NCBI RefSeq assembly: GCF_022288725.1
Contig: NZ_JAKNTA010000013.1
Span: forward strand, 6,580 to 30,579
Reading direction: 5' to 3'
From: Kitasatospora sp. A2-31
Lineage (GTDB): Bacteria; Actinomycetota; Actinomycetes; Streptomycetales; Streptomycetaceae
Length of the DNA stretch: 24,000 bases
Position 1 is the stretch's first letter. Each line of letters begins with the position of its first letter. Positions 2,635 to 19,306 of the stretch are shown here, piece by piece. A program made the translations under genes and the position numbers. The notes below the pieces were generated by a model that ran no database searches, was not told where the DNA came from, and was given only the letters and a program-made list of their open reading frames with translations.

Positions 2635-2704
2635 TCACGCCGGACGGCCGCGGTCGCCGGCGCCGCCGCGCGCCCCGCGAGGCCACGACGGGAGGAGGGC
2701 CGCC

Positions 2705-3547: not shown

Positions 3548-3615
3548 CGCCGCGTCCCCGCCCGCCGGCCCGATCCCGCTGCCCGACCAGACGCCGTGAC
3601 CGAGGAACTGCCGCC

Positions 3616-5229
3616 GTGACCGACCACGCCCCCGCCGACCTGCTGATCCGGTCCGGCGCCGTCCACACGCTCGTCCCCGGCGAGGCGCCGCGCCGTGCGC
3701 TGGCCGTCACCGGCGACCGGATCACCGCGCTGTCCGCCTCGGCGGCCGGCCTGGACCACCTGATCGGCCCGGGGACGGAGGTGCTGGACCTGCCCGGCGC
3801 CACCGTGCTGCCCGCCTTCGACGACACCCACACCCACCTGATCCTGGCCGCGCACAGCGTCCACGACGTGCCGGTCCACCGGGCCGGGGACCTCGGCGAG
3901 TTCCTCGGCCTGATCCGTGAGCGGGCGGCCCGCACGCCCGCAGGTCAGTGGATCCGCACGACGATCAACTGGCAGGAGGTCAACCTCGCCGAACAGCGCC
4001 TGCCCCGCACCGAGGAGCTGGACGCGGCCACCGACCGGCACCCGGTGCTGGTGCGGCGCGGCGCCTACAACATGGTCCTCAACACGCCTGCGCTGCGGCT
4101 GGCCGGCATCACCGCCGCCACCGAACCCCCGCCCGGCGGCGTGATCGAGCGGGACGATCAGGGCCGGCTGACCGGCCGGCTGGTCGACAAGGCGGTCGCA
4201 CTGGCCGAACGGGTCCTGCCGCGCCCCGCGCTCGCCGATCGCATCGACGGCCTGCGAGCCGCGTCCGCCGACTACGCCGCGACCGGGATCGGTACCGTCC
4301 GCGACTGCCTCGTCCCGGTGGAGGACCTCGACGTGCTCCGCGGGGCCCGGCAGGCCGGTGCGCTGAGCGTGCGGGTGCGTGCCCTGGTCTCCGGCTTCGG
4401 GGCCCGTACGCCGGCGCAGGTGGACGAACTGCTCGACCGGATGGAGCCCTGGCGCGCCGAGGGCGATGCGTGGCTGAGCGTCTGGGGCGTCAAGTTCGGC
4501 ATCGACGGCGGCATCGAGGCGGGTGCGCTGGACGAGCCGTACGAAGGCCGCCCGTGCTACCACGGCACCCTGCTCTGGGAGCCGGAGGAGCTGGCCGCGG
4601 CGGTCGACCGGGTGGTCGCGCGCGGCTGGCGGGTCGGCGTGCACGCCTGGGGGGACCGCGGCCTCCGCACGTTGCTGGACGTCTTCGAGCAGGTGCTCGG
4701 GGGGCGCCCCGGCCTGGCTCCGGGCACCCTGGTGGTCGAACACGGCGGCCTGGCCCGGCCCGACCAGCGAGCGCGTGCGATCGCGCTCGGCATCCCGGTC
4801 ACCGTCCAGCATCCGCTGCTGCACGATGCGGCGACGGCCCAGATCCGGGCCTGGGGCGCCGAGCGGGTGCGCGGGATCTTCCCGCTGCGCGAGTGGCTGG
4901 ACGAGGGCGCGCTGCTGGCGGCCGGCTCGGACTTCCCCGTCGGGCCCTACGGGGCGATGGTCTCGGTCTGGGGCATGACGACCCGGCAGACCGTGGCCGG
5001 CGCACAGGGCGCCGAGCACGCGATCACCCGGGCCGAGGCGATCGCGCTGCACACCGTCGACGCCGCCCGCCTGCTCGGCGAGAGCGGCACGCGCGGGAGC
5101 CTGCGCCCCGGCGCGCTGGCCGACCTCACCCTCTGGCCCGCCGACCCGCTGACCTGCCCGCCCGACGAGCTGGCGGAGCTGAGGCCGCTGCGCACCGTCC
5201 TGGGCGGCCGGACGGTCCACCGGGCCTGA
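3616..5229 (+). CDS. metal-dependent amidohydrolase (Amidohydro_3 / YtcJ-like)
   Basis: GTG 3616 follows GAGGAA (3602-3607). Motifs include 'ATVLPAFDDTHTHL' (HxH metal motif), 'GVKFGIDGG', 'VGVHAWGDR' and 'LAAGSDFPV'. The ORF-track N-terminal extension from 3235 overlaps the paaX-like gene and is Arg/Pro-rich. Confidence 0.8.
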   Translation: MTDHAPADLLIRSGAVHTLVPGEAPRRALAVTGDRITALSASAAGLDHLIGPGTEVLDLPGATVLPAFDDTHTHLILAAHSVHDVPVHRAGDLGEFLGLIRERAARTPAGQWIRTTINWQEVNLAEQRLPRTEELDAATDRHPVLVRRGAYNMVLNTPALRLAGITAATEPPPGGVIERDDQGRLTGRLVDKAVALAERVLPRPALADRIDGLRAASADYAATGIGTVRDCLVPVEDLDVLRGARQAGALSVRVRALVSGFGARTPAQVDELLDRMEPWRAEGDAWLSVWGVKFGIDGGIEAGALDEPYEGRPCYHGTLLWEPEELAAAVDRVVARGWRVGVHAWGDRGLRTLLDVFEQVLGGRPGLAPGTLVVEHGGLARPDQRARAIALGIPVTVQHPLLHDAATAQIRAWGAERVRGIFPLREWLDEGALLAAGSDFPVGPYGAMVSVWGMTTRQTVAGAQGAEHAITRAEAIALHTVDAARLLGESGTRGSLRPGALADLTLWPADPLTCPPDELAELRPLRTVLGGRTVHRA

Positions 5230-5286: not shown

Positions 5287-5305
5287 CGCATCCCGGACGG
5301 GTGCT

Positions 5306-5336
5306 TCATCGGGTTGTCATCGGGCACTGGCACGGT
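5306..5336 (+). promoter_or_regulatory. SARP-box-like element: TCATCGG(5306-5312)-N4-TCATCGG(5317-5323)-N7-CACGGT (-10-like, A2/T6)
   Basis: Two identical heptamers (octamers TCATCGGG) have 11-bp periodicity and lie 75-105 nt upstream of the cutinase-like start codon. The 20-mer 5303-5322 is 19/20 identical to 6228-6247. Confidence 0.45.
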
Positions 5337-5410
5337 CGTCCCGTGACCTCGGCCGAGCGCGTGCCGCACCCGAGAGCGGGCGCGCGGGCCGACTGCATGG
5401 GGAGGAACGA

Positions 5411-6079
5411 ATGCGAGCACGACGGATCGCGGCCGCGGCAGCCGGAATCCTGCTGACGGTCGGGCTGACAGCGGCACAGGGGGCCACGGCACAGGGGGCG
5501 CCCGCGCGCGTGACGGCTCCGTGCGAGGGCACCTACACGATCGTGGTCGGGGGCACCGGCAGCTCGTGGAACAACGACGGGTTCACCGGCAACATCCAGC
5601 AGCACGTCGGGTATCCCACCCAGATCCCCAACGGTGCCAGCACGCGGGCCGGCGTCAACGAGCTGAACCGGCTGGTCCGCGACCAGCGCGCCGCGTGCCC
5701 GGGCCAGCACGTCAAGATGGCCGGGTACTCGCTGGGAGCCGGTGTGGTGCACGTCTGGGTCACCGAGAACTGGCAGACCTTCGACAACGTCAACGCCATC
5801 CTCGTCTCGGACCCCAAGCGCCAGGGCCCGCCCGGGGCCAACGGCGGGGCCGTGCCGTTCGGCGGCATCATCGGAGCTCCGCTCGCGGGTGCCGACAGGT
5901 TCTTCGGCAACGTGCCCGTCAAGACGATCTGCCACTGGGACTACGTCTGCGACGAGTCCGCCGGGATCTGGACCTACCCGTACAACCACGTCCACAACTA
6001 CCCCGAAGACTTCAACATGGATCACCACAACGACAGCGCCAACGAGGTCTGGTACAACGGCGCCTGGTACCCCGCGTAG
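5411..6079 (+). CDS. secreted cutinase-family (cutinase/PE-PPE-like) serine hydrolase
   Basis: ATG 5411 follows GGGGAGGA. The N-terminal signal peptide is 'MRARRIAAAAAGILLTVGLTAAQGATAQG'. Cutinase-like order of blocks: 'CEGTYTIVVGGTGSS', 'ACPGQHVKMAGYSLGAGVV' (GYSxGA nucleophile elbow), 'AILVSDPKR', 'KTICHWDYVCDES'. Confidence 0.75.
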   Translation: MRARRIAAAAAGILLTVGLTAAQGATAQGAPARVTAPCEGTYTIVVGGTGSSWNNDGFTGNIQQHVGYPTQIPNGASTRAGVNELNRLVRDQRAACPGQHVKMAGYSLGAGVVHVWVTENWQTFDNVNAILVSDPKRQGPPGANGGAVPFGGIIGAPLAGADRFFGNVPVKTICHWDYVCDESAGIWTYPYNHVHNYPEDFNMDHHNDSANEVWYNGAWYPA

Positions 6080-6120
6080 GCAAGAGGACGCCCGTCGGCC
6101 GGGTCCGTGGCCGCGCACCT

Positions 6121-6168
6121 TCACCGCCCGTCGGCGACCGGGAACGTCCGGCCGCCGACGGGCGGTGA
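6121..6168 (+). terminator. strong stem-loop terminator after the cutinase-like gene
   Basis: tcaccgcccgtcggcg (6121-6136) is the perfect reverse complement of cgccgacgggcggtga (6153-6168). Four more pairs inside (6138-6141 with 6148-6151) leave a 6-nt loop. It is followed by gccgtttcc. Confidence 0.7.
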
Positions 6169-6230
6169 GCCGTTTCCGCCGCCCGGCGGCTAAGGAGCCC
6201 GGCGGCTCCGGAGCCCCGGCCCGCGACGCT

Positions 6231-6261
6231 TCATCGGGATGTCATCGACCCTTCCTAGCCT
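6231..6261 (+). promoter_or_regulatory. SARP-box-like element: TCATCGG(6231-6237)-N4-TCATCGA(6242-6248)-N7-TAGCCT (-10-like)
   Basis: Same architecture and spacing as 5306-5336. TAGCCT fits the Streptomyces TAnnnT -10 and lies 48 nt upstream of the acylase ATG. It sits downstream of the strong terminator at 6121-6168, so this is an independent transcription unit. Confidence 0.5.
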
Positions 6262-6308
6262 GGCCGTGTTCAGCCAAACGACCGGACCGCAGGGGGAAGG
6301 ACGACTCG

Positions 6309-8810
6309 ATGGCACGGAGCAGACTCAAGGCGAGGCTGCCGATCGCGGTCATGGCCGCGACGGCACTGATGGGCACGGTGGCGGCAGCCGGGACACCGGG
6401 CACCGGGACCCCGGACGACAGGCGCCCGGCCGCCGTACGGGTGCCGGCGCCGGACCGACCGACGATCCGGTACACCGAGTACGGGATCCCGCACATCATC
6501 GCCTCGACCATGGAGGGACTGGGCGAGGGGTACGGCTACGCGGCGGCCAAGGACAACATCTGCACCCTGGCCGACACCTACCTGATGGTCAACGCCCAGC
6601 GGTCCCGCTACCTGGGGCCCGACGGCAGGGCGAGCCCCGGCCAGAACCAGAACAGCACCAGCAATCTCAACAGCGACCTCTACTTCCAGCGGATGAACGA
6701 CAACCGGGTGGTGGAGCGGCTGCTCGACCAGCCCGCCCCCAACGGGCCGGAGCCGGAGGTCAAGGAGGGCATCCGCGGCTACGTCCGGGGGTACAACCGC
6801 TACCTGGCCGAGACCGGCGTGAACAACCTCTCCGACCCGGCCTGCCGGGGCGCGGCCTGGGTGCGGCCGATCACCGAGCTGGACGTCTACCGGCACGCGC
6901 ACGCCGAGATCGTCATGGGCAGCGCCGATCCGCTGCTGGACGGCGAGGTGACCGCCGCACCCCCGGGGGCGCCGGGCGCCGCGCCGTCCCCCGCCGCGGC
7001 GCCGGCGGTCTCCCCCGAGGAGACCGCGGCGAAGATCCGCGAGGCGATGGCCGCGAGCCGGCAGCAGGGCAGCATGGGCAGCAACGCCCTGGCGGTCGGG
7101 TCGCAGGGGGTGGCCCCGGGCACCGGCACCAGCATGCTGCTGGCCAACCCGCACTTCCCGTGGCAGGGCAAGAACCGGATGTGGCAGAGCCAGCTGACGA
7201 TCCCGGGGAGGATCAACGTCTCCGGGGCCAGCCTGCTCGGACTCCCGGCGGTGAACATCGGGCACACCGACGACGTCGCCTGGAGCCACACCGTCGCCAC
7301 GGTGGCCCCGTTCGGGCTGTTCGACGTGCAGGTGGACCCGCTGCACCCGACCAGCTACCTGGTGGACGGCGGCTGGCAGCAGATGACCTCGCAGCAGGTC
7401 GGTGTCGACGTGCTGCAGCCGGACGGCTCCGTCGGCAGGGTCACCAGGACGCTGTGGTCCACCCGCTACGGCCCGATCACCACCTCGGTGCTCGGCGTCG
7501 CCCTGCCCTGGGTGGTGAGCGCCCACGCGGTGCGCGACGCGAACATGGACAACCTGCGGGCGTTGAACACCTGGTTCCACCTCGACCAGGCCAAGGACGT
7601 CGGCGACGTGGTGAGCACCCTGGAGACCACGCAGGGCGTGCCGTTCTTCAACACGGTCGCCTCCGACCGCAAGGGCAACGCGCTGTACGCGGACATCCAG
7701 GCCGCCCCGAACATCACCGATGCGCACGCGCAGTCCTGCCTGACCCTGACCGGCCAGGTGCTGTTCAACCAGCAGCTGCGGCTGCCCAACGTGCCGCCGG
7801 TCTCCGTCTTCGACGGCAAGCGCAGCGAGTGCGACTGGCCAAACGACCCGAACGCCGTCGCGCCGGGACTGCTGGACCCGCACAAGCAGCCGCGCCTGAT
7901 CCGGTCCGACTTCGTGGGCAACGCCAACGACAGCCCCTGGCTGGCCAACCCCGAGCAGCCGCTGTCCTTCCCCCGGGTGATGGGCGACAGTGCGGCGCCC
8001 CGCTCGCTGCGCACCCAGGAGCTGGTCCTGACCGCGCAGAACCGGATCAGCGGCAGTGACGGTCTGCCGGGCCGCGGCTTCACCCCGGAGACCATGCGGC
8101 AGTTGCTGTTCGCCGACGGCAGCAGGGCGGCCGACCTGGCCCTCGACGCCACCGTGACCACGTGCCGCAGCCAGCCCTTCGGGCTCGTCCTGGTGGACGG
8201 CAACCTGGTCGACGTGAGCGAGGCCTGCCCGGTCCTGGCCGCCTGGAACCACAAGTACACCGCGGACAGCCGGGGGTCCTGGCTGTTCGAGAACCTCTGG
8301 TACCTCCTGACCAACGGCCAGGCGATCGAGAAGCTGCCGTGGCGGGTGCCCTTCGATCCCAAGGACCCGGTGCACACGCCCAACTCGCTGGACCCCGGGA
8401 GCTCCGCCGTCCGTGACGCGCTCGGCCGGGCCGTCCTCGCGCTGCGCAAGGCGGGCGTTCCGCTGAACGCGCCGCTGTCGGACGTCCAGAGGATCACCCG
8501 CAACGCCGAACGGATCCCGATCCACGGCGCGATCCACGAACTGGGCGTGCTGAACGTGGTCACCCCCGGAACGGTCGACGGAAAGCTGGACATCACCTTC
8601 GGCTCCAGCTTCGTCCAGGAGACGCGGTTCACCGCCGACGGCCCGCCGCAGGCCGCCTCGCTGCTGGCCTACTCCCAGTCGGCGAACCCGAACTCGCCCC
8701 ACTACTCGGACCAGACCAGGCTGTTCTCGGCCGGTCAGTGGGTGACCGAACGCTACACCGAGGAGCAGATCGCGGCCTCACCGGCGCTGGAGATCAAGGT
8801 CCTGGACTGA
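6309..8810 (+). CDS. secreted Ntn-hydrolase of the penicillin amidase (S45) family: AHL acylase / aculeacin-A (lipopeptide) acylase-like
   Basis: ATG 6309 follows GGGGGAAGGA. Signal peptide 'MARSRLKARLPIAVMAATALMGTVAAAG'. Alpha-subunit start 'IRYTEYGIPHIIAS...GYGYAAAKDNICTLAD'. An Ala/Pro-rich spacer leads to 'QQGSMG|SNALAVGS' (beta-subunit N-terminal Ser nucleophile, codon at 7080-7082), then 'LLANPHFPW'. Confidence 0.85.
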   Translation: MARSRLKARLPIAVMAATALMGTVAAAGTPGTGTPDDRRPAAVRVPAPDRPTIRYTEYGIPHIIASTMEGLGEGYGYAAAKDNICTLADTYLMVNAQRSRYLGPDGRASPGQNQNSTSNLNSDLYFQRMNDNRVVERLLDQPAPNGPEPEVKEGIRGYVRGYNRYLAETGVNNLSDPACRGAAWVRPITELDVYRHAHAEIVMGSADPLLDGEVTAAPPGAPGAAPSPAAAPAVSPEETAAKIREAMAASRQQGSMGSNALAVGSQGVAPGTGTSMLLANPHFPWQGKNRMWQSQLTIPGRINVSGASLLGLPAVNIGHTDDVAWSHTVATVAPFGLFDVQVDPLHPTSYLVDGGWQQMTSQQVGVDVLQPDGSVGRVTRTLWSTRYGPITTSVLGVALPWVVSAHAVRDANMDNLRALNTWFHLDQAKDVGDVVSTLETTQGVPFFNTVASDRKGNALYADIQAAPNITDAHAQSCLTLTGQVLFNQQLRLPNVPPVSVFDGKRSECDWPNDPNAVAPGLLDPHKQPRLIRSDFVGNANDSPWLANPEQPLSFPRVMGDSAAPRSLRTQELVLTAQNRISGSDGLPGRGFTPETMRQLLFADGSRAADLALDATVTTCRSQPFGLVLVDGNLVDVSEACPVLAAWNHKYTADSRGSWLFENLWYLLTNGQAIEKLPWRVPFDPKDPVHTPNSLDPGSSAVRDALGRAVLALRKAGVPLNAPLSDVQRITRNAERIPIHGAIHELGVLNVVTPGTVDGKLDITFGSSFVQETRFTADGPPQAASLLAYSQSANPNSPHYSDQTRLFSAGQWVTERYTEEQIAASPALEIKVLD

Positions 8811-8854
8811 TGCTCCCGTTCCGCACGACGACGACACCGACGAGGGGAAACACC

Positions 8855-9937
8855 GTGACGAGGACATCGAGCCGGTGGCGCAGGGTGGTGGCCCTGGTGG
8901 CCGCCGTCCTGGCGACGGCCACCACGGCGGGTGCCGCACGTGCCGCCGCCGGCACGGGGGCGCCGCCGCCGATGGCGAACGGGTTCGGCCTGACCCAGGT
9001 CGAACCCGCCGTGGGCGGTCCGACCGACTTCTACCTGACCGTGACCACTCCCGAGGTCACCGGCCGGCACCACATCAAGATCATCCTGCCGAGCGGGTAC
9101 TACGACGACCCGACCAGGCGCTACCCCGTGCTGTACTTCCTGCACGGCTCACCCGACGACCCCGTCCAGCAGAACTATCCGGCGCTGACCATGTCCCACT
9201 CGATGATCACCGTCATCCCGGACGGCGGCGCCCGGGGCTGGTACGCCAACTGGCTCGACCAGAACACCCGGCTGGGAGCCCAGAACTGGGAGAACTTCCA
9301 CCTCCAGCAGGTGATCCCGTTCATCGACGCCAACCTGCGGACCGTCGCCGCCAAGAAGGCCAGGGCCGTCGCGGGCGTCTCCATGGGCGGCTTCGGCGCC
9401 CTCCACTACGCCCAGGACCACCCGGAACTGTTCGGCCAGACCGCGTCCCTGTCGGGCGACATCGATCTGTCGGCCGACTCCATGGACCTGAGGCTGGCCG
9501 TCGTCGCCTCCCTCATCGACGCCCAGGGCGCGCTCTGCGGCTCGTCCTCCGGATTCTGCGGCGACCCCGCGAACGACCCGTACAAGCCCGGCGTGGACAG
9601 CGACGCCCTGTTCGGCTCGCCCTACCCGGTGTTCAACGTGGACTGGCGTTGGAACGCGGCCGACCCGTCCCAGCACATGGACAGGCTCGCCGGGGTCGGG
9701 GTCTCCATCTACGTGGGCAACGGACGCGGCGTGCCCACCGACCTGGAGTTCTGGCTCGAAGGCGCGTCCAAGCACGTCAAGGACCGCATGGACGCCCTGG
9801 GCATGTCCTACCACTACGTCGACTACGGCGACGGCTCCGGCTGGGGCACCCAGTGCAACGGCGGCCACAACGCCGGCTGCTGGGAACAGGACCTCCGGGA
9901 CCTGATCCCCCGGCTCGAACGGGCCTTCGCCTCCTGA
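8855..9937 (+). CDS. secreted esterase (esterase D / antigen-85 mycolyltransferase-like alpha/beta hydrolase)
   Basis: GTG 8855 follows GAGGGGA. An alternative ATG at 8810 overlaps the acylase stop (TGATG). Signal peptide 'RWRRVVALVAAVLATATTAGAARAAAG'. Motifs: 'YPVLYFLHGS', 'VIPDGGARGWYANW', and 'AVAGVSMGGFGALHYA' (GxSxG). Probably co-transcribed with the acylase. Confidence 0.8.
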   Translation: MTRTSSRWRRVVALVAAVLATATTAGAARAAAGTGAPPPMANGFGLTQVEPAVGGPTDFYLTVTTPEVTGRHHIKIILPSGYYDDPTRRYPVLYFLHGSPDDPVQQNYPALTMSHSMITVIPDGGARGWYANWLDQNTRLGAQNWENFHLQQVIPFIDANLRTVAAKKARAVAGVSMGGFGALHYAQDHPELFGQTASLSGDIDLSADSMDLRLAVVASLIDAQGALCGSSSGFCGDPANDPYKPGVDSDALFGSPYPVFNVDWRWNAADPSQHMDRLAGVGVSIYVGNGRGVPTDLEFWLEGASKHVKDRMDALGMSYHYVDYGDGSGWGTQCNGGHNAGCWEQDLRDLIPRLERAFAS

Positions 9938-9960
9938 GCGTGACCCGGGGCCGTCCCGTG

Positions 9961-10008
9961 GGTCGGCCCAGGCCTCACCGCGCGGCCGCGGTGAGGCCGG
10001 GGCCGACC
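9961..10008. terminator. bidirectional hairpin between the convergent esterase (+) and LuxR-SARP (-) genes
   Basis: ggcctcaccgcg (9971-9982) pairs with cgcggtgaggcc (9987-9998) around a 4-nt loop. The stem is extended by ggtcggccc (9961-9969) pairing with gggccgacc (10000-10008). This gives about 21 bp with one mismatch and overlaps the last codons of the minus-strand gene. Confidence 0.55.
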
Positions 10009-11048
10009 TCGTCCCCGCTCAGGATCAGCCGGTGCGTCTGCCGCAGCAGCCGGCTCGGCGCAACCCCCAGGTCGTCGGCCAGCCGGCGGCGGGTGCGGTC
10101 GAACACGGCCAGGGCGTCGGCCTGTCGGCCGCTGCGGTACAGCGCGCGCATCAGCATCGCGGCCACCGGCTCGTTGAGGGGGTGCTCCGCGGCCAGGGCG
10201 AACAGCTCGGCCGCCGCCTCGCAGCACTGGCCCAGACCCAGCTGCCACTCCAACTTCCGCTGGGCGACGGCGATCCTGCGCTCGGCGAGCCGCAGCCGCT
10301 CCAACTCTGCCAGCGGGCCGGGCAGTCCGGCCAGGAGCTCGCCGCGGAACAGGTCCAGCGCCCGCGTGCAGAGGCGGACCGCCTCGGTCGGGTCGCCCGC
10401 CCGGTGGGCCGCCCCGGCGTCGGTGACCAGGCGCTCCATGCGCGCCAGGTCCACCTCGACCGCACCGGGCACCAGCCGGTATCCGCACCGGTCGTGCTCG
10501 ATCACCGAGTCCGGGCCGTCCCCGATGCGCAGGGTCTTGCGGAGGCGGTAGATGTGGACCGGTACCACGTTCGTGACCGGCTGATCCGAGCCCCAGACGC
10601 CGTCCAGCAGTTCCTGCTGGCTGACGGTCCGCCCCGCGTGCAGCGCCAGTGCCGCCAGCACGGCTTGCTGGCGCAGGTGTCCCAGCTCCAGGGACCGCCC
10701 GCCCCATCGGGCCCGCAGCGGGCCGAGTACGGAGATCTGCACCTTCGGTCCTGCCGTCGGGCGGACGGCGCTGCAAGGAAGCGACCCCGCTGCCGCCCGC
10801 GTGCGGGGGCCGCGGCCCGGGGCGACCACTCCGCAGTCGAAGGCGTGGACGATGGCGGCGGCCCGGTCGCGCAGCCCGAGCTTCCCGAGGATCCGCGCGA
10901 CGTGCCCGGCCACGGCCTCCTCGGAGATGGCGAGGACGGCGGCGATCTCGTCGTCCCGCAGGCCGCAGCCGACCGCGTGGAGCACGTCGCGCTCCCGGGG
11001 CCCGAGCACGACGGCGCTCGGCCGGCTGGTGGTGGCGTTCGTCGGCAT
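9975..11048 (-). CDS. hybrid transcriptional regulator: N-terminal LuxR/GerE-type HTH + SARP (OmpR-type winged helix + BTAD)
   Basis: ATG 11048 is preceded by AGGGAG. Residues ~15-75, 'LGPRERDVLHAVGCGLRDDEIAAVLAISEEAVAGHVARILGKLGLRDRAAAIVHAFDCGVV', form a GerE HTH. 'VQISVLGPLRARWGGRSLELGHLRQQAVLAALALHAGRTVSQQELLDGVWG...IYRLRKTL...GYRL' is the SARP wHTH. 'VDLARMERL...ALDLFRGELLAGLP...LMRALYRSGRQADALAVFDRTRRRLADDLGVAPS' is the BTAD. Confidence 0.8.
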   Translation of the reverse strand: MPTNATTSRPSAVVLGPRERDVLHAVGCGLRDDEIAAVLAISEEAVAGHVARILGKLGLRDRAAAIVHAFDCGVVAPGRGPRTRAAAGSLPCSAVRPTAGPKVQISVLGPLRARWGGRSLELGHLRQQAVLAALALHAGRTVSQQELLDGVWGSDQPVTNVVPVHIYRLRKTLRIGDGPDSVIEHDRCGYRLVPGAVEVDLARMERLVTDAGAAHRAGDPTEAVRLCTRALDLFRGELLAGLPGPLAELERLRLAERRIAVAQRKLEWQLGLGQCCEAAAELFALAAEHPLNEPVAAMLMRALYRSGRQADALAVFDRTRRRLADDLGVAPSRLLRQTHRLILSGDEVGPGLTAAAR

Positions 11049-11116
11049 CGCTGCTCCCTGGACTCCGGGCCGGCCGGTCCGGCGGACGCCGTCGACGGTA
11101 GTGACGGGGCCCCGGG

Positions 11117-11139
11117 CCCGGAATCCGGAACGATCCGGA
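11117..11139 (-). promoter_or_regulatory. clustered TCCGGA palindromes (minus strand: TCCGGAT-cgt-TCCGGAT-TCCGGG) upstream of the LuxR-SARP gene
   Basis: atccgga occurs at 11123-11129 and 11133-11139 (10-bp period), with a third tccggg-type copy adjacent. The cluster lies 70-90 nt upstream of the ATG at 11048. Function is unknown. Confidence 0.2.
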
Positions 11140-11172
11140 GGAGCACGCGCGGCCGGCCCTGCGTGCACCCGA

Positions 11173-11254
11173 TCAGGAGCAGCGGCAGACCCCTGCGGCC
11201 ACCCGGTGAGGACCGCCGGCAGACCCCTGCGGCCACCCGGTCAGGAGCAGCGGC
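11173..11254. repeat. about 2.4 copies of a 34-bp tandem repeat spanning the kinase stop codon and the kinase/SARP intergenic region
   Basis: Unit 1, 11173-11206: tcaggagcagcggcagacccctgcggccacccgg. Unit 2, 11207-11240: tgaggaccgccggcagacccctgcggccacccgg. Partial unit 3, 11241-11254: tcaggagcagcggc, which is the stop plus last codons (..GRCS*) of the kinase. Confidence 0.9.
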
Positions 11255-12602
11255 CCAGGGTGGGGTGGTCCTTGGTGCGGACGGCGGGGAGCCAGGCGGT
11301 GGTGGGGCCGGGGAGGTGGACGCGGTACCAGAGGGTGGAGGTGCGGTCCTCCTCGTCGATGACGGGGAGGCCGGTGGGGAGCTGGCAGTCGGCGTCGAGG
11401 AGGTCGCCGTGCCAGACACGGGTGGGAACGACGTTCCCGGCGGTGTAGGCGCGCAGGGGATCGACGGCGAGGCCGAGGCTGCACCGGGGGTCGCGGTCGG
11501 TGCGGTCCTGACAGCTGCGTTCGGCGTTGAAGACCCGGATGCGGGTGGGGTGTTCCGCCGGACCGGAGTGCGGCCAGAGCACGGTGGCGGCGACCGCGGC
11601 CGTGGCACAGGCGGCGAGGGCGAGCAGGGCGGTGCGCGGTCGTGGGCGACCACGACGGCGGCCGGACCGGTGCGCGCGGATCCGGGTGAGCAGGCTCTCG
11701 GCGGTGTGCGGGGCCCGCGCGGCGTGGGTGGGGGCGAGGCAGTCGGCGGCGAGGGCGCGCCAGAACGGTGGGACTTCGGGGGCCAGGCGCAGGGCGGCGC
11801 GGCCCTGGGCGTACTGCTGGGCGGCGGCGCTGCGGGCGGTGGGGGTGGCGCCGGGGAAGGGCGGGACACCGGCGGCGAACACCTCGTGGATCACGATGCC
11901 GAGCGCCCAGATGTCGGCGGTGGGGCGGATCTTGACGCCGTGTTCGCCGAGCGGCTCCCCCCAGCGCTCCGGCGGGAGGTAGTCGGGGGTGCCCATGGGG
12001 GCGGCGTGGCCGTGGGTGCCGGTGAGTTCGATGGCGAGGCCGAAGTCGGAGAGGCGGACCTCGCCGTCCTCGCCGATGAGGACGTTCTCGGGCTTGAGGT
12101 CGGTGTGGACCCAGCCGGAGCGGTGCAGGTGGGCCAGGCCCTCGCAGATGCCGGCGACGATCCGGCCGCCCCGGGCCTCGTCGACGCCGGTGGCGAGCAG
12201 GTCGCGCAGGGTGCCCCGGGCCCGTTCCATCACCAGCACGATCGCGCCGTCGAGCGCGGGGTGGTCGGGACAGTCCAGGACGAGGGTGTCGAGCAGGCGG
12301 ACCAGCCGGGGGTGCGGGGCGGTGCGGCCCAACTCGGCTTCGCGGCGAGCGGCTTCGGCGACCTGGCGGGCCTGGCGAGGGGCGAGTCCGGCGATCGGCA
12401 GCACCTTGAGCGCCACCGTGCCGTCCACGCCGGCCGTGCTGTCCGAGCCGTCGCAACGAGTGGGGTCGTCCGCCCGGCGGGCGGCGTAGACGGTGGCCCA
12501 TCCGCCCTCGCCGATGGGCTCGGTGACGATCCAGTCGCCGATCCGGTGACCGGCGGGCAGCAGTTCCTGGCCGGACCCGCGGAAGGCCGGGGCGTGCACC
12601 AT
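11241..12602 (-). CDS. single-pass transmembrane Hanks-type Ser/Thr protein kinase (non-RD: HTD catalytic loop) with Cys4 extracellular domain
   Basis: Kinase motifs: 'IGEGGWATVY' (G-loop), 'VALKVL' (beta3 Lys), 'HTDLKPENVL', 'LSDFGLA', 'GTPDYLPPE'. An Arg-rich stop-transfer segment 'RSGRRRGRPRPR' is followed by the TM helix 'TALLALAACATAAVAATVLW'. The C-terminal domain is about 110 aa and has 4 Cys. Confidence 0.85.
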   Translation of the reverse strand: MVHAPAFRGSGQELLPAGHRIGDWIVTEPIGEGGWATVYAARRADDPTRCDGSDSTAGVDGTVALKVLPIAGLAPRQARQVAEAARREAELGRTAPHPRLVRLLDTLVLDCPDHPALDGAIVLVMERARGTLRDLLATGVDEARGGRIVAGICEGLAHLHRSGWVHTDLKPENVLIGEDGEVRLSDFGLAIELTGTHGHAAPMGTPDYLPPERWGEPLGEHGVKIRPTADIWALGIVIHEVFAAGVPPFPGATPTARSAAAQQYAQGRAALRLAPEVPPFWRALAADCLAPTHAARAPHTAESLLTRIRAHRSGRRRGRPRPRTALLALAACATAAVAATVLWPHSGPAEHPTRIRVFNAERSCQDRTDRDPRCSLGLAVDPLRAYTAGNVVPTRVWHGDLLDADCQLPTGLPVIDEEDRTSTLWYRVHLPGPTTAWLPAVRTKDHPTLGRCS

Positions 12603-12608
12603 CGGGCC

Positions 12609-13376
12609 CTACCTTCGGGGCTCGGCGGCTTCGGGGCGCGGCAGGAGCGCCAGGTGCTCCTCACGAACGATGCCGAACTTCAGGGCGAGGCCCACGACGG
12701 CCTCGCGCTTCCCGCTGCGGCGGTCCGCGCGGCCCGCGTCGTCGGGCAGGTCGATGCGGAGCTTCTCGTCGGCGAGGTAGTCGAGGTGCGAGCTGACCGC
12801 GCGGGCGGTGAGCCGGGCGCAGGCGGGGTGGTCGCGCAGCCGCGCGACCACCTGGAGAGTGGTGGGTACGGCGGCGGGGGAGCGGTCACGCAGCCACGGC
12901 TCGCAGAGCGCGACCAGGACCAGGAAGTAGGTGGCGGTCTCGTCCAGCGAGTACGCCGTCATGGTACGACTCTCCCAGGAGCCGCCACCGCGGGCGTCCG
13001 GATCCAGGTAGACGTGGTCGGGCGCGAACACCTGGAAGGACAAAGGCGTTTCACGTCGTGAGGGCAGCACCACCCGGGAGAACTCGAACGGGATCGGCGC
13101 GCCGATGCGCCGCGGCGGCACCCGCAGGTACTCGCCGGCGCCCTCCGGGTTCTCCACCAGATAGGCGTGGGTGCTGCTGAGGTTGCTCAACTGCCAGTGG
13201 TCGTCGGTCGCGTGGATCTCGCCGGCGAGGCGGGACACCGTCTCGTCGCCGAGTCGGAGCTCCACCGGCGTGCCGGCGGAGCCGCGGCCGAAGCGCGCCC
13301 GCTCACCCGGACCGAGCCGCAAGGTCACCGCGTCCTGGCCGTTCCCCTCCGGCAGGTGGACGAGAATCCCGCTCAC
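12609..13376 (-). CDS. FHA-like domain protein (partly degenerate pThr-binding motif) with uncharacterised C-terminal helical domain
   Basis: GTG 13376 follows GGAGGA. 'RFGRGSAGTPVELRLGDETVSRLAGEIHATDDHWQLSNLSSTHAYLVEN' follows the FHA pattern GR...SR.H...S.NG..vN, with His->Ala and Asn->His substitutions. The stop is 6 nt before the kinase ATG, so the two form an operon. Confidence 0.55.
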   Translation of the reverse strand: MSGILVHLPEGNGQDAVTLRLGPGERARFGRGSAGTPVELRLGDETVSRLAGEIHATDDHWQLSNLSSTHAYLVENPEGAGEYLRVPPRRIGAPIPFEFSRVVLPSRRETPLSFQVFAPDHVYLDPDARGGGSWESRTMTAYSLDETATYFLVLVALCEPWLRDRSPAAVPTTLQVVARLRDHPACARLTARAVSSHLDYLADEKLRIDLPDDAGRADRRSGKREAVVGLALKFGIVREEHLALLPRPEAAEPRR

Positions 13377-13434
13377 CGCTCCTCCGTCCCGCGCACCGCT
13401 TACCCCGTTTCGCCTGCCGATCGTTGTCGGACGG

Positions 13435-13463
13435 ACGGAACGTTACCTCCTTGAGCATGACAA
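13435..13463 (-). promoter_or_regulatory. candidate promoter of the FHA-kinase operon (TTGTCA-N17-TTCCGT) in the only AT-rich patch of the region
   Basis: The minus strand reads GGTTTATTGTCATGCTCAAGGAGGTAACGTTCCGT. The -35-like TTGTCA is at 13463-13458. The -10 candidate is weak. Confidence 0.25.
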
Positions 13464-13592
13464 TAAACCGCACGGTGGCGCAGGCCACGTGACGGGGGAG
13501 CGGAGGAGCGCGGGAGCGCGGGAAGGGGCGTGCGGGAGGTCAGGGCATCGGCGCCGCCGGGTGCGGCCGCCGCCCGTGGCGGTACGGCCCGC

Positions 13593-13618
13593 GAGCGGGA
13601 GCACGCGGGCTCCCGCTC
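13593..13618 (-). terminator. hairpin downstream of the M23-lectin gene
   Basis: gagcgggagc (13593-13602) is the perfect reverse complement of gctcccgctc (13609-13618), with a 6-nt loop. It lies about 70 nt after the stop at 13686. Confidence 0.4.
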
Positions 13619-13685
13619 CGGCCGCCCGCAGCGGGCTGCGCCTGCTGATCGGGGACGTCGTCGCTCTCCGGTGGTTCCGGTGCGG

Positions 13686-15230
13686 TCAGGGGACGGCGGG
13701 TCCGGCGGTGGTGTGGAGCCAGGTCCAGTCGGACCAGGTGGAGAAGCCGGTCTGCCACTTGTGGTGGACGCCGGCGTTGCTGGTGCCGAACACTTCGATC
13801 CGGCCGTCGGCGTTGGCGGTGGCGGTGATCTCGGTGCCGGCGCCGCCGAAGGTGTCCCACGGGCCGTAGGGTGCGTTGACGCCGGTCTGCCAGGTGTGTT
13901 GGGCGGTGGTGGTGTTGATGGCGAACACTTCGATGCGGCCGTCCGCGGTGGGCTGGCTGGTGAGTTGGGAGTCGGCGGGTCCGCCGGTGGGTTGCCAGTC
14001 GGACCAGGTGGTGGGGTTGGTCTGGTACTTGTGGAAGACGCCGGCGGGTCCGGAGGCGAAGACTTCGAGGCGGCCGTCCTGGTTGTGGTCGACGGTGAGG
14101 TCGTGGCCGCCGCCGCCGAAGGTCTCCCAGGTGGACCAGGTGCCGTTGGCGGTGGTCTGCCATTGGTGTTGGAAGGTGGTGGTGTTGAGGGCGAAGACTT
14201 CGAGTCGGCCGTCGGGGGCTTTGCCGAGTGAGATGCGGCTGTCGGCGGGTCCGCCGGCGGGTTGCCAGTCGGACCAGCCGCTGTTGGGGGCGCTCTGGTA
14301 CTTGTGGAAGACGCCGGCGGGTCCGGAGGCGAAGACTTCGAGGCGGCCGTCCTGGTTGGAGCCGGTGGCGAGGGAGTGGCCGCCGCCGCCGAAGGTCTCC
14401 CAGGTGGACCAGGCGCCGGAGGGCTGGAGCTGGTAGCGGTGTTGGAGGGTGGTGCCGTTGAGGGCGAACATCTCCAGGCGGCCGTCGGGGTTCGGGCCGA
14501 TCGCCAGCTCGGCACCGCCCGGGCCGCCCAGGGACTCCCAGTCCGACCAGGCACCGCTCACCGCGGTCTGCCAGGCGTGCGAGACGCCGTCGGCACCCGC
14601 GGCGAACACCTCCAGCCGGCCGTCCGCCGAACGCGCCGACACCACCCTCCCCGACTGCGCCGGATACACCGGCGGGGTGGGGCGGGGGCCGGTTCCCGGA
14701 GTGCAGGGCATGGTGATCCCGCGCTCCGCCAGGTAGGGGATCGGGTCGGTGCGCACGGTCGCGTCCGAGTCGGCCCAGACCCGTAGGTGCAGGTGCGGGC
14801 CGCTGGAGGTGCCCTCGCTGCCCATCAGTGCGATCAGCTGACCTGCCGTCACGTGGTCGCCGGCGGCCACGTCCCGCTCGCGCATGTGCCCGTACTCGGT
14901 GATGGTCCCGTCCGGGTGCAGGATGCGGATCCACTGGCCGTAGCCCTGCGCCGGGCCGGAGACCAGCACCTGGCCGTCGCCGACCGCGTAGATCGGGGTG
15001 CCGTAGTCGTTGGCGATGTCGATGCCGTTGTGCTCGGGGGTGTAACCCTGGGAGATGTAGCCGGCGGCCGGGCAGGACGCGGTGAATCCGGCGGCCGCAG
15101 CAGGGGTGGCCGACGCGGGCGCGGCCGGCACGGTGACGGGCAGCAGCAGGGCGACCGCGGCGAGGGCCAGGCGCGCGGCGCGGGAGTACGTTCGACGGCC
15201 GAAGGAGGGGAGCACCGGCGCGCCCCTCAT
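13686..15230 (-). CDS. secreted M23 (LytM-type) metallopeptidase fused to a seven-bladed PLL-type lectin beta-propeller
   Basis: ATG 15230. Signal peptide 'MRGAPVLPSFGRRTYSRAARLALAAVALLLPVTVPAAPASA'. M23 motifs 'HNGIDI' (HxxxD) and 'GPHLHLRV' (HxH). Seven repeats follow of 'DGR[LI]E[VM]F....H.[WY]Q.....WS.W...GG', as in Photorhabdus PLL-family fucose/O-methyl-sugar lectins. Confidence 0.85.
   Translation of the reverse strand: MRGAPVLPSFGRRTYSRAARLALAAVALLLPVTVPAAPASATPAAAAGFTASCPAAGYISQGYTPEHNGIDIANDYGTPIYAVGDGQVLVSGPAQGYGQWIRILHPDGTITEYGHMRERDVAAGDHVTAGQLIALMGSEGTSSGPHLHLRVWADSDATVRTDPIPYLAERGITMPCTPGTGPRPTPPVYPAQSGRVVSARSADGRLEVFAAGADGVSHAWQTAVSGAWSDWESLGGPGGAELAIGPNPDGRLEMFALNGTTLQHRYQLQPSGAWSTWETFGGGGHSLATGSNQDGRLEVFASGPAGVFHKYQSAPNSGWSDWQPAGGPADSRISLGKAPDGRLEVFALNTTTFQHQWQTTANGTWSTWETFGGGGHDLTVDHNQDGRLEVFASGPAGVFHKYQTNPTTWSDWQPTGGPADSQLTSQPTADGRIEVFAINTTTAQHTWQTGVNAPYGPWDTFGGAGTEITATANADGRIEVFGTSNAGVHHKWQTGFSTWSDWTWLHTTAGPAVP
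13971..14413 (-). repeat. intragenic tandem duplication, 270-273-bp period (two propeller blades)
   Basis: 14021-14084 is identical to 14294-14357 (64/64 nt). 13971-14007 vs 14241-14277 and 14103-14140 vs 14376-14413 are near-identical. One 3-bp indel lies between the blocks. Confidence 0.9.
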
Positions 15231-15355
15231 GCCGCGCGCAGACGGCCGACGGTGCCGCCGGCCGCCGCCGGGTCGGCGGCGCCCGGTGCCGGGGCGGTGC
15301 CGAGCCCGCCGGGGGGCCCGGGGACGTTCCTGCGGGTGCGGTGGTGCGCGGTCAA
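15227..15355 (-). CDS. candidate 42-codon leader ORF (TTG start) translationally coupled to the M23-lectin gene
   Basis: A perfect AGGAGG (15366-15361) lies 5 nt before TTG (15355-15353). The stop TGA (15229-15227) overlaps the M23 ATG (15230-15228) as ATGA. The M23 ATG has no SD of its own. Third-position GC is very high within the ORF but drops upstream of the TTG in the same frame. The peptide is 'LTAHHRTRRNVPGPPGGLGTAPAPGAADPAAAGGTVGRLRAA', with no recognisable family. Confidence 0.3.
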   Translation of the reverse strand: MTAHHRTRRNVPGPPGGLGTAPAPGAADPAAAGGTVGRLRAA

Positions 15356-15799
15356 CGTGACCTCCTGAGGGCGCGTGACGGCCATCTGTCCGGACCGCCG
15401 GGAGTGGAGCGGTTGGGACGTTAGCCACGCACCGCGCGGCGCAGAACCCGGAACCATCCGGACTGACGGGCGCGGGACCGGCCGAGGAGACTGTCGGGCG
15501 GACCGTCTGTCCTGCGGGCGGGGGGTGTGCCGGACAGCGACCGTCATGGGTCGTCAGCAGGAGTCGAGGAGGGGCCGACCGAGCGCGACGAGCCGCGGAC
15601 GGGGACGGAGAGCACCGCGGCCCGGCCGAGACGGCCGCACACCGGCCGGATCGGGGCAAGCCGCTACGCGGCGTCGCCGGGCTACCCGGCAGGTCGTCCT
15701 GCCGAGGGGCCTGTTGAGTGCCCGTCCGGCGCGGCGGGTGGTCGCCGAGGCCGCCGGGTGAGGCGCCGCTGCCGGCCGCTCGGAGGGCGGACGGCAACC

Positions 15800-15820: not shown

Positions 15821-17395
15821 TCAGACCTGTCCCTCGCGGCCGGTCGGCAGGGGCTGCTGCTCCTCGGTGGCGGCCTCGGACTGCACGCCGGCACGGAGGC
15901 CGACGATCGCCACCACCGCGGCCACGGCCATGATGACCGCCATCCAGTAGAAGACCGTCTGGGTGGCGTGGGCGAAGTCGACCCGGAAGAACTGCGGGAT
16001 GTCCGCGGTGCCCCCGCTCCCTCCGCTCTGCGCCTGGACCTGGGAGAGGTGGGCGGCCGTGGAGGACGCCTGGGCGGGCGGCAGGCCCTGGGCCACCAGG
16101 GAGTCGGTCAGCCGGGAGCGCAGGTCGGTGACCAGGACGGTGCCCAGCACGGCCAGTCCCAGGCTCGCGGCGTAGTTGCGGACCGTCTGGGTGATGCCGG
16201 TCGCCTCGCCGTAGGAGAGCCGCGAGGCACGGTTGACGGCGTCCGTGCTGGCGGGCGAGAGCATGAAACCCATGCCGGCGCCGGCCAGCACGACGTCCCA
16301 CTGCTGCTCGCTGAAGCTCAGCGTAGTCACGTCGCCCGCCCACAGGTAGAAGCCGACCGCGGCCAGCACGCACCCGAGCACCACCGGTCGCTTCGCGCCG
16401 CCCCGGTCGAGCATCCGGCCGCCGATCTGCGAGGCGATCACGAACCCGATGAAGAAGTAGAGCAGGAAGACGCCGGCCTCCGAGGAGGAGTCACCCAGCG
16501 CGATCTGCGCGTACTCGCTGGAGAAGAAGAACACGGGGACGAAGACCAGCATCGAGATGCCGAGCACGAGGTTCTGCACGAAGAACGCGCGGATGCGGAA
16601 GATGTCCACCTGGATCAGCGGCGAGGCGGTGCGTCTCTCGACGACCGCGAAGACGACCAGCAGCGCGGCACCGGCCGCGATGCAGAGCCCGATCGCCGGG
16701 TTCGACCAGCCCCAGACCTGCGACTGCTGGAACCCGAAGACGCTCAGTCCGACACCGCCGGCGATCAGGGCCAGGCCCCGGTAGTCCATGGGCGCCGGAC
16801 GGATCTCCGTCACCGGCTTGGAGACCGCGACCAGCACCAGCGCGACGGCGGCCACCGGCAGGTTCACCCAGAAGATCGCCCGCCAGGTCCATTCGGTCAG
16901 GTAGCCGCCGAGGACCGGGCCGATCGCGGTCAGACCGCCCGCGATGCCGAAGAACAGGGCCAGCGCCCGCCCCCGCTCGCGCAGCGCGAAGCTCTGCACC
17001 ACGATGGCGAGGGCTGCCGGGAACATGATCGCGCCGCCGAAGCCCTGGACGGCACGGAAGGCGATCAGCCATCCCTCGGCCAGGCTCCCGGTGGGGGTGA
17101 GGCCGCAACAGGCCGAGGCACCCGCGAACACCACCACCCCGAGGACCACCATCTTGCGGTGACCGACGGTGTCGGCGAGCCGGCCGCCGAACGCGAAGAA
17201 CGCGGCCAGGGTGAGCAGGTAGGCGTTGACCGCCCACTGCACCCCCGTGCTGGTCAGCTCCAGCTCGTGCTGGATGTTCGGTACGGCGATCGACACGATG
17301 GTCTGGTCGATGAAGGTCATCGCAACGGCGAAGATCATCGCCGTCAGCACCAGGTAACGCGAGGATCCGCCGACGGTAGCAGTCTGCATCGTCAT
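15821..17395 (-). CDS. MFS transporter, DHA2 (EmrB/QacA-like, 14-TMS) family
   Basis: ATG 17395 ('MTMQTATVGGSSRYLVLTAMIFAVAMTFIDQTIVSIAVPNIQHEL'). 'GGRLADTVGHRKMVVLG' is the MFS motif A-like loop. The protein is 524 aa and hydrophobic throughout. The ORF-track upstream extension is Arg/Pro-rich. Confidence 0.85.
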   Translation of the reverse strand: MTMQTATVGGSSRYLVLTAMIFAVAMTFIDQTIVSIAVPNIQHELELTSTGVQWAVNAYLLTLAAFFAFGGRLADTVGHRKMVVLGVVVFAGASACCGLTPTGSLAEGWLIAFRAVQGFGGAIMFPAALAIVVQSFALRERGRALALFFGIAGGLTAIGPVLGGYLTEWTWRAIFWVNLPVAAVALVLVAVSKPVTEIRPAPMDYRGLALIAGGVGLSVFGFQQSQVWGWSNPAIGLCIAAGAALLVVFAVVERRTASPLIQVDIFRIRAFFVQNLVLGISMLVFVPVFFFSSEYAQIALGDSSSEAGVFLLYFFIGFVIASQIGGRMLDRGGAKRPVVLGCVLAAVGFYLWAGDVTTLSFSEQQWDVVLAGAGMGFMLSPASTDAVNRASRLSYGEATGITQTVRNYAASLGLAVLGTVLVTDLRSRLTDSLVAQGLPPAQASSTAAHLSQVQAQSGGSGGTADIPQFFRVDFAHATQTVFYWMAVIMAVAAVVAIVGLRAGVQSEAATEEQQPLPTGREGQV

Positions 17396-17757
17396 CCGTT
17401 CGGGGATGCGTCCGCGCGTCACTGCCGGCGGACCACCTGGGGGACGGGCCCGTCGTGGAGCAAGGGGCCCGGATCCCTGCCGTTGGCTCGGCGGCTCCCA
17501 TGCTAGCGACCGGTCCGCGGCGCACGGCGGAGCCGCGCCCGGAGCCCCCGGCCGCCCTACTTCCCGCCGCGGCTGCTCGCGGCGGCCGCATGCGCCTGAC
17601 GCGCGCCCCGCACCCGGTCCGGCGCAGCGACGCCACGCGTTCGGCACGGAATCTCCGTGCGGGCGGGACGGTTGATGTTCGGAGAGACGATCCGACGGTT
17701 CCGGCACCGATGTGCCGGACCGGCGTCCGGACGAGCCCGCATCGTGAGGTGTGTCCC

Positions 17758-18117: not shown

Positions 18118-18122
18118 GGAGC

Positions 18123-19292: not shown

Positions 19293-19306
19293 GGCGGGCT
19301 CGCGTG

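Follow-up and report, generated by a model that had tools for sequence, protein, structure and literature searches.

The 24,000-nucleotide (nt) stretch of DNA analysed here (the window) comes from Kitasatospora sp. A2-31 and has a G+C content of 70–77%. It holds a block of seven genes, G1–G7, in which secreted hydrolases are encoded beside a transcriptional regulator and two putative signalling proteins. With reading frames picked by third-position GC (GC3 frame analysis), three plus-strand genes (G1–G3, 5411–9937) converge with four minus-strand genes (G4–G7, 9975–15230), and the two sets meet at 9.94/9.98 kb, the layout that a first-pass annotation of the same DNA had claimed. The predicted products are a cutinase-like esterase (G1), an N-acyl amidase (G2), a PF00756 esterase (G3), a SARP-type regulator (G4), a receptor Ser/Thr kinase (G5), an FHA-fold protein (G6) and an M23 endopeptidase joined to a lectin-type propeller (G7). 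All seven gene and domain calls of that annotation proved real, by Pfam for G1–G5 and G7 and by a fold match of an AlphaFold2 (AF2) model for G6, and its secreted hydrolases look the part: all four secreted proteins (G1, G2, G3 and G7) have a signal-like N-terminal sequence and intact catalytic motifs. No biosynthetic gene cluster was found when the window was searched for one.

Conservation of the neighbourhood

We asked whether the block is kept as a unit by collecting 80 loci anchored on G4, with ±10 kb flanks, out of 256 relatives, and counting orthologues by tblastn with every window protein; three loci in other genomes, anchored on G6, were added. All 80 loci are from Kitasatospora or Streptomyces, and their G4 proteins are 68–90% identical over the full length. 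Orthologues of G1 were present in 49 of the 80, G2 in 41, G3 in 45, G5 in 31, G6 in 34 and G7 in 33, whereas the outer flank genes recur only in the 2–3 closest relatives. G5–G6 thus stand beside the SARP gene in only ~40% of loci. Gene order varies; for example, G2–G3 can be inverted and divergent from G1, and the lectin-G6-G5 genes can lie on the other side of the SARP gene. Despite these inversions and reshuffling, the block genes remain no more than 10 kb apart. When all genes called in the 80 loci were clustered without bias, these families came out again, together with further recurrent members, namely SLT_3–lectin, GH43-like–lectin and other lectin fusions, and a second esterase of family PF00756, with a Tat (twin-arginine translocation) signal, which we call F15.

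In all three G6-anchored loci, G6 and the kinase gene come after an operon for an esterase or a lectin-hydrolase. A cutinase gene adjoins in two of them (L082 and L083), the first of which also has a GerE-SARP gene and the second an acylase-esterase pair; the third, from S. fradiae, has no SARP gene within 10 kb. The distribution of the loci is that of an accessory element, with variable content and an unconserved genomic position, mostly towards the chromosome ends. Since linkage persists through rearrangements and in the G6-anchored loci, while the S. fradiae locus separates the parts, comparison of these genomes indicates that G1–G7 is a real, conserved but modular neighbourhood made of two separable modules. 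The proposal of a single integrated locus therefore stands in part: the genes are linked beyond chance adjacency and the flanks are not conserved with them, but membership is modular and the two modules are apart in S. fradiae.

A repeat box upstream of the hydrolase genes

The 18-nt sequence TTCATCGGGNTGTCATCG occurs exactly twice in the window (5305–5322 and 6230–6247), against 0.07 occurrences expected by chance. It represents an AfsR-box-like element, E1 (TCATCG-N5-TCATCG), whose repeats are 11 nt apart and whose end lies 8 nt before the −10 hexamer. On the plus strand, the G1 box, TTCATCGGGTTGTCATCG (5305–5322), is followed after 8 nt by a −10-like CACGGT at 5331–5336, and the G2 box, TTCATCGGGATGTCATCG (6230–6247), after 8 nt by the −10 TAGCCT at 6256–6261.

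Counted at ≤1 mismatch and ≤260 nt upstream of a gene, E1 preceded G1 in 49 of 49 loci and G2 in 37 of 40, so that the SARP-type boxes noted earlier at two hydrolase units are both present and conserved. It preceded G3 in 4 of 42 loci, G3 otherwise being in an operon with G2, and was absent upstream of G4 (0/80), G5 (0/29) and G6 (0/33). Across the related loci (1.56 Mb) there were 135 matches, compared with 0–5 in shuffled sequence. E1 with the same geometry was also found before the gene of a 553–571-aa lysozyme-like–lectin protein (11 loci) and before a PE-PPE/cutinase-like gene (8 loci). Its occurrence before the lectin-tagged lysozyme-like gene in 11 genomes ties lectin-hydrolases to the same putative regulon. 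The spacing of box, 8 nt and −10 is kept in every class of E1 promoter, and the box is present at >100 orthologous promoters.

The AfsR site consists of two repeats of CGTT(T/C)ATCGNN (PMC10972967), and the end of a SARP site lies 8 bp from the −10 on its upstream side, a side-by-side dimer bound there replacing the contact made by sigma region 4 (PMC11301090). E1 matches both descriptions, nearly in repeat sequence for the first and in geometry for the second. It has the 11-nt period, the 8 bp to the −10 and the −35 overlap of a SARP target promoter, which makes binding by G4 a prediction from sequence.

Genes for condensation-domain proteins (452–465 aa) lie ~5 kb upstream of the SARP gene in six loci (L032, L035, L037, L042, L043 and L057). 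They have an E1-like box upstream (TTTCATCTTTNTTTCATCG, then 8 nt and TAGNTT), and ketosynthase and methyltransferase genes adjoin them; these may form a small lipid/peptide pathway under the same or a related SARP.

A second element upstream of the regulator and lectin genes

One box does not unite all units of the block. A search for E1 near G7, G6, G5 and G4 that allowed up to 3 mismatches found none, and this possibility was rejected. A different element, E2 (TCCGGAT-N3-TCCGGRT, 10-nt period), has exactly two copies in the window where 0.05 would be expected, both on the minus strand. The copy upstream of G4, TCCGGATCGTTCCGGAT (11123–11139), is followed by 22 nt and a −10-like TACCGT at 11100–11095. 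The copy upstream of the G7 operon, within GTCAGTCCGGATGGTTCCGGGTTCTG (15442–15467; E2 core 15446–15462), stands 22 nt before the −10 TAACGT at 15423–15418. The distance from E2 to the −10, TA(C/A)CGT, is thus 22 nt at both.

E2 is invariant in 12/12 aligned G4 promoters and lies upstream of G4 in 60 of the 80 loci. Its core stands before lectin or F15-esterase operons ~28 times, including all three G6-anchored loci and hence the S. fradiae locus without a SARP gene within 10 kb. Altogether there were 77 matches to the core across loci versus 0–3 in shuffles. The M23-lectin gene does not share the box of the hydrolases; its operon and the SARP gene carry E2, and this distinct element points to two regulatory tiers in place of a single shared box.

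About 20 of the G4-anchored loci, here called type B (L031–L033, L035, L037, L039, L042, L043, L047, L056, L057, L062 and others), have neither the G1–G7 block nor E2. They carry a divergent XRE-NB-ARC-TPR regulator (~800 aa) and a DUF6585 protein whose gene overlaps the SARP stop codon, along with an E1-boxed secreted PE-PPE/cutinase-like protein.

Candidates for the protein that would bind E2 are the GerE domain of G4, G4 itself in a 10-bp mode, and an unlinked regulator. A 10-bp binding mode has been reported for PimR (PMC10972967). The GerE domain and E2 do not always occur together, as type B loci keep GerE without E2 and in S. fradiae E2 occurs with no SARP linked to it. In several Streptomyces loci (for example L048, 14702–15724) a DUF5937/ArsR-type helix-turn-helix (HTH) gene lies just upstream of the E2-bearing M23-lectin operon, and its product is a further candidate for binding E2.

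The regulator G4

G4 (9975–11048, minus strand, 357 aa) combines an N-terminal GerE HTH (residues 14–69) with an OmpR-type winged HTH (wHTH; Trans_reg_C, E 5e-14) and a BTAD domain (E 1e-38), the latter two being the SARP architecture. Its closest solved relative is the SARP module of AfsR (E 7e-47), followed by EmbR (4e-24). G4 is thus of the SARP family, but it belongs to none of three further groups that its domains recall. It lacks the NOD/ATPase and TPR domains of an AfsR orthologue, and scored 206 bits against the NCBIfam AfsR family NF053617 (cut-off 1430), covering AfsR positions 5–270 only. It has no fused FHA domain in Pfam, as an EmbR-type protein would; the FHA fold sits on the separate G6. 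Nor is it a LuxR-type quorum-sensing receptor, having only the N-terminal GerE HTH and no autoinducer-binding domain. The G4 sequence matches a protein of Kitasatospora sp. A2-31 at 100% identity, K. hibisci being the nearest species representative. Orthologues form a family found in at least 256 species-level genomes, and all of its database names are generic.

The kinase G5 and the FHA-fold protein G6

G5 (11241–12602, minus strand, 453 aa; Pkinase E 3e-35) is a Hanks-type kinase by its intact motifs (VALK63, HTDLKPEN166, DFG186, PPE210). It is non-RD, with HTD in place of HRD, and the residue at this position varies among orthologues. One transmembrane segment at ~324–342 is followed by a 110-aa ectodomain that is kept in orthologues with four invariant Cys; it was modelled as a compact beta-rich domain with a predicted local distance difference test (pLDDT) score of 89. 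Three tandem 34-nt copies at 11157–11258 run across the G5 stop codon into the first part of the G5–G4 spacer, each repeating the final codons of G5 (…CTGCTCCTGA…). In related loci the copy number is one or two, which indicates a local tandem duplication in the window.

G6 (12609–13376, minus strand, 255 aa) is a cytoplasmic protein with a helical C-terminal half. Residues 1–125 of its AF2 model have pLDDT 72–90, and in a Foldseek search the top matches were all FHA domains (FhaA, GarA, OdhI and the FHA domain of EmbR; TM-score ~0.7, target-normalised). According to this model, then, the N-terminal part of G6 has the FHA fold, and the earlier FHA-like call is borne out in spite of a weak sequence match: profiles gave no Pfam FHA match, only a weak one to Yop-YscD_cpl (E 0.006). 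The motifs G30-R31 and S48-R49 are invariant in 32 sequences, while the canonical His and Asn positions of the phosphothreonine site are replaced. A scan of NCBIfam found no family for G6. The wider G6 family comprises 1331 sequence clusters, lacks any Pfam domain and is named inconsistently; its entries (P0001–P0120) are mostly called 'serine/threonine protein kinase' in the absence of a kinase domain, probably an annotation spill-over from the adjoining kinase gene.

The G6 stop codon is 6 nt from the G5 start, and a conserved region upstream (13440–13483, minus strand; …GTAACGTT…) includes a −10-like TAACGT at 13445–13440. Neither E1 nor E2 is present in this region. From their arrangement, G6 and G5 are a predicted translationally coupled pair with a promoter of their own.

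The secreted enzymes

G1 (5411–6079, plus strand, 222 aa) is a predicted serine esterase that matches Pfam Cutinase (PF01083) with 37.4 bits against a gathering cut-off of 25.9. It has the nucleophile motif GYSLG at 105–109 and four Cys. Among phage protein families it matched phrog_6187 (E 1.5e-21) and phrog_102 of the lysis category (E 1.7e-11). Similarity to solved cutinases was very weak (E 0.02), and no NCBIfam family was found for it.

G2 (6309–8810, plus strand, 833 aa) matches Penicil_amidase (PF01804, E 2e-123), and is closest, among solved proteins, to MacQ and PvdQ, which places it in the PvdQ/MacQ/N-acyl-homoserine lactone (AHL) acylase group. The PvdQ beta chain aligns from residue 258 of G2, the Ser of GSNALAV. 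G2 accordingly has the alpha/beta precursor form of an N-terminal nucleophile (Ntn) hydrolase, with Ser258 as the predicted N-terminal nucleophile of the beta chain. It is not a PvdQ equivalog, scoring 561.8 bits against NCBIfam NF051460 (cut-off 950). Actinomycete acylases of this group cleave long-chain AHLs, aliphatic penicillins and aculeacin-type lipopeptides (PMC8388760).

G3 (8810–9937, plus strand) would be co-transcribed with G2, since its ATG at 8810 overlaps the G2 stop codon; an alternative GTG lies at 8855. It matches Esterase PF00756 (E 9e-31) and has the motif GVSMG. After its best solved relative, the mycoloyltransferase PS1 of C. glutamicum (E 3e-19), come feruloyl esterases, Cmt1 and Ag85. 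The match to feruloyl esterases is almost as good as that to PS1, and mycoloyl transfer is a candidate activity of G3.

G7 (13686–15230, minus strand, 514 aa) joins a Peptidase_M23 domain (PF01551, E 1e-30, with lysostaphin and LytM matches) to a seven-blade propeller. The M23 motifs are intact (HxxxD, H67–D71; HxH, H146–H148), as in active lysostaphin-type enzymes. Seven 135-nt repeats encode the seven 45-aa blades, which match PHL, PLL2 and PLL at E 4e-51 to 5e-49. The propeller is thus of the PLL/PHL type, with a predicted lectin role, and Pfam Beta-prop_PLL is recorded on syntenic G7 homologues. PLL-type lectins bind fucose-type sugars in solved Photorhabdus structures.

Two members of the neighbourhood appear to have been lost from the window. 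An open reading frame (ORF) upstream of G7 (15355–15227, minus strand), which the first-pass annotation had called a leader ORF, does exist, with a good ribosome-binding site, a TTG start and an ATGA overlap with G7. It begins with the Tat-signal start TAHHRTRR and aligns with the F15 esterase gene (Tat signal TAHHPTRRS…) over its promoter, its ribosome-binding site and the ~31 codons at its 5′ end, before the alignment skips ~860 bp to the start of G7; L008, L012, L020, L025 and others have the F15 gene intact. The same ~860-bp deletion is present in L001 and L002. This homology identifies the ORF as a deletion remnant of a Tat-signal PF00756 esterase gene and rules out a dedicated regulatory leader peptide. 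Next, K. hibisci (L001, 4371–7408) has two tandem lectin genes, an M23-lectin and an SLT_3-lectin between G7 and G6, where the window has one. The propeller region of the window (13686–14670) aligns to both K. hibisci copies at 93% and 92%, suggesting that recombination between near-identical propeller-coding regions removed ~1.5 kb. Loss of the F15 esterase and of the SLT_3-lectin would show both genes to be dispensable.

Flanking genes and other features

A strong hairpin 3′ of G1 (6120–6168, plus strand; −61.3 kcal/mol, z −2.8) is a likely terminator dividing the G1 unit from the G2–G3 unit, and a bidirectional hairpin with a 22-bp stem lies at the G3/G4 convergence (9961–10008, both strands; z −4.9 on the plus and −5.8 on the minus strand). 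A scan for consensus sigma-70 promoters returned none and a scan for T-tract terminators gave matches at chance level, both scans being uninformative in window DNA of 73% GC.

The flanks are unrelated to the block. To the left (6–5229) is an aromatic-catabolism-like cluster with a bicupin dioxygenase-like protein, an FAA hydrolase, an Amdase/maleate-isomerase-like protein, a PaaX-family regulator and an Amidohydro_3 protein, shared only with the closest relatives (L001, L002 and L005). To the right (15821–22750) are an MFS transporter, a zf-UBP protein, a DUF5996 protein, a TAP-like alpha/beta hydrolase with a lipoprotein signal, a small unknown protein and a tandem-USP protein. In K. hibisci the gene of the small unknown protein adjoins G7 directly, pointing to a ~5.8-kb insertion in the window or a deletion in K. 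hibisci.

Comparison with known systems

The AfsK-AfsR-afsS system of S. coelicolor is similar in placing a Ser/Thr kinase upstream of a SARP. The wHTH and BTAD domains of G4 are most AfsR-like, and the AfsR target box shares with E1 the repeat core, the 11-nt period and the 8 nt to the −10 (PMC10972967, PMC11301090). It differs in that G4 has only 357 aa, lacks the NOD/ATPase and TPR domains and has an extra N-terminal GerE HTH; that G5, a receptor kinase of small size, has a novel ectodomain and is accompanied by the separate FHA protein G6; and that the putative targets are secreted hydrolases beside the regulator, with no afsS or antibiotic clusters. PknH-EmbR of M. tuberculosis likewise has a receptor Ser/Thr kinase, an FHA domain and a SARP encoded together and linked to the envelope (PMC9239209); among solved relatives of G4, EmbR ranks second, and the fold search with G6 picked up the EmbR FHA domain. 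In contrast to EmbR, the FHA fold is here on a separate 255-aa protein with a helical domain, the regulator has a GerE HTH instead, and the outputs are secreted degradative enzymes and no arabinosyltransferases.

The small SARPs ActII-ORF4, RedD and DnrI are of the same size class and have wHTH and BTAD domains; they bind heptamer-type repeats that overlap the −35 and activate adjoining genes directly (PMC10972967). G4 differs from them in its extra DNA-binding domain, its hydrolase cargo and the absence of a biosynthetic cluster, and in being an orthologous family (at least 256 species-level genomes) that does not travel with one pathway. The G7 propeller (E ~1e-50, seven 45-aa blades) resembles the Photorhabdus PLL/PHL lectins, which stand alone, whereas here the propeller is fused to M23, SLT_3, GH43-like and other catalytic domains. 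G2 shares the Ntn-hydrolase architecture, signal peptide and Ser nucleophile of AhlM, SlPVA, AuAAC and PvdQ/MacQ; unlike PvdQ it stays below the equivalog threshold (562 versus 950 bits), and its substrate is a prediction from sequence.

Our searches of the literature on acylases of this group found no description of control by a SARP box or of an operon with an esterase. Those on SARPs with cutinase or acylase, on PLL lectins with Streptomyces or M23, and on LuxR-SARP fusions found no description of the system. What would be new in it is that SARP and Ser/Thr-kinase signalling is directed at secreted hydrolases instead of an antibiotic pathway.

Interpretation

We consider it reasonably probable that the locus is a conserved, modular accessory regulon of Kitasatospora and Streptomyces, in which a kinase and FHA protein act through a SARP on secreted lytic and lipolytic enzymes, with no antibiotic pathway. 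In such a scheme, an extracellular or cell-surface cue would be read by the ectodomain of G5, and phosphorylation by G5, read by G6, would alter the regulator(s) acting at E2 and/or G4; this input step is modelled on PknH-EmbR and AfsK-AfsR. A G4 dimer would bind E1, substitute for the weak −35 contact and recruit RNA polymerase, thereby turning on the cutinase-like esterase, the long-chain N-acyl amidase and the mycoloyltransferase-like esterase. E2 would co-induce G4 and the lectin-targeted peptidoglycan hydrolase. The output would be a burst of extracellular enzymes that remove ester- or amide-linked acyl chains and cut glycan-marked walls.

Competing microbes, or their lipid signals or antibiotics, are the most plausible targets on present sequence evidence. 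We infer this attack role from the enzyme families: lectin-guided M23 and other wall hydrolases, LysB-like and mycoloyltransferase-like esterases and a long-chain N-acyl amidase would together suit an assault on the envelopes and lipid signals of other microbes.

Several points weigh against this regulon. Its binding, phosphorylation and expression steps come from sequence comparison, and the enzyme families of G1–G3 and G7 are broad, so that the predicted substrates are tentative. Besides G4, the global regulators AfsR (with the same box type) and PhoP are possible occupants of E1. The precedent of EmbR-PknH is itself contested in vivo (PMC9239209). A structure search of the PDB with the G5 ectodomain found no significant relative, only weak SH3-like matches. 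The ~40% of SARP loci with G5–G6 show that these are not obligatory partners of the regulator, and E2 is missing from the ~20 type B loci with a GerE-bearing G4 and occurs without a linked SARP in S. fradiae.

A narrower version, which we rate as rather unlikely, makes the block a kinase-triggered extracellular weapon against mycolic-acid actinobacteria (Mycobacterium, Rhodococcus, Corynebacterium and Nocardia), a cellular counterpart of the LysA/LysB of mycobacteriophages. The LysB-like cutinase and mycoloyltransferase-like esterases would strip the mycolate layer, PLL-type lectins would guide the M23, lysozyme-like and GH43-like modules to the exposed wall, and the acylase would take lipid tails off envelope lipopeptides or signals. 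The SARP subfamily would then have been re-purposed from antibiotic to enzyme warfare. Solved relatives of the PLL-type lectins bind fucose and O-methylated sugars.

Breakdown of plant or fungal polymers (cutin/suberin, feruloylated hemicellulose, arabinans) for nutrition or root colonisation would account for the cutinase family match of G1, for the resemblance of G3 and F15 to CE1 feruloyl esterases, nearly as close as that to mycoloyltransferases, for the GH43-like lectin fusions in related loci and for the fucose-type sugar binding of PLL-type lectins in Photorhabdus structures. We nevertheless think it unlikely, since the same lectin is fused to peptidoglycan-specific modules (M23 and the lysozyme-like SLT_3), G1 and the alternative cargo match a phage lysis family, and the PvdQ/AHL-acylase-type amidase has no obvious plant-polymer substrate.

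The hydrolase genes might instead belong to the global regulon of AfsR and/or PhoP, with G4 a neighbour that has a different or redundant job. The E1 core T(T/G)CATCG is near the AfsR site CGTT(T/C)ATCGNN, which PhoP also recognises (PMC10972967), and secreted lipases and esterases are typical nutrient-scavenging outputs. Against this stand the linkage of E1-bearing genes to G4 across species and through inversions, the AfsR-like DNA-binding module of G4, which would itself be expected to read such a box, and the gain of E1 by differing cargo genes precisely when they lie beside G4. On balance we doubt that a global regulator accounts for the pattern.

Remodelling of the producer's own envelope under kinase control, in hyphal autolysis, sporulation septation or germination, is in our view very improbable. 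M23 and lytic-transglycosylase-like enzymes and pairs of Ser/Thr protein kinase and FHA protein are common in actinobacterial growth and division, and FhaA is among the top fold matches of G6. A role in growth fits poorly with the accessory and modular distribution, the variable content and the unfixed position, mostly towards chromosome ends. Streptomyces wall growth is not known to involve lectin targeting, cutinase-like enzymes or the acylase, and the window has lost the F15 esterase and the SLT_3-lectin, which are thus dispensable. Finally, co-inheritance in a variable chromosome arm with no functional coupling, which would explain the incomplete membership (31–49 of 80 loci) and the fact that the two modules can be apart, is scarcely credible given linkage kept through multiple independent rearrangements and two conserved promoter elements exclusive to member genes.

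To our knowledge, SARPs have been treated almost exclusively as switches of antibiotic gene clusters. The regulon that we favour centres on a widely conserved, generically annotated SARP subfamily that has conserved boxes before secreted hydrolase genes and no biosynthetic cluster, and whose partners in many genomes are a receptor kinase and an unannotated family of FHA-fold proteins. E1 and G4 make a directly testable promoter-regulator pair, while E2 is a second, orphan operator that joins the regulator gene to lectin-guided wall hydrolases. The lectin-enzyme fusions could serve as targeted lysins, and the locus would offer a natural system in which to ask which extracellular cue triggers the lytic enzymes of Streptomycetes against their neighbours.

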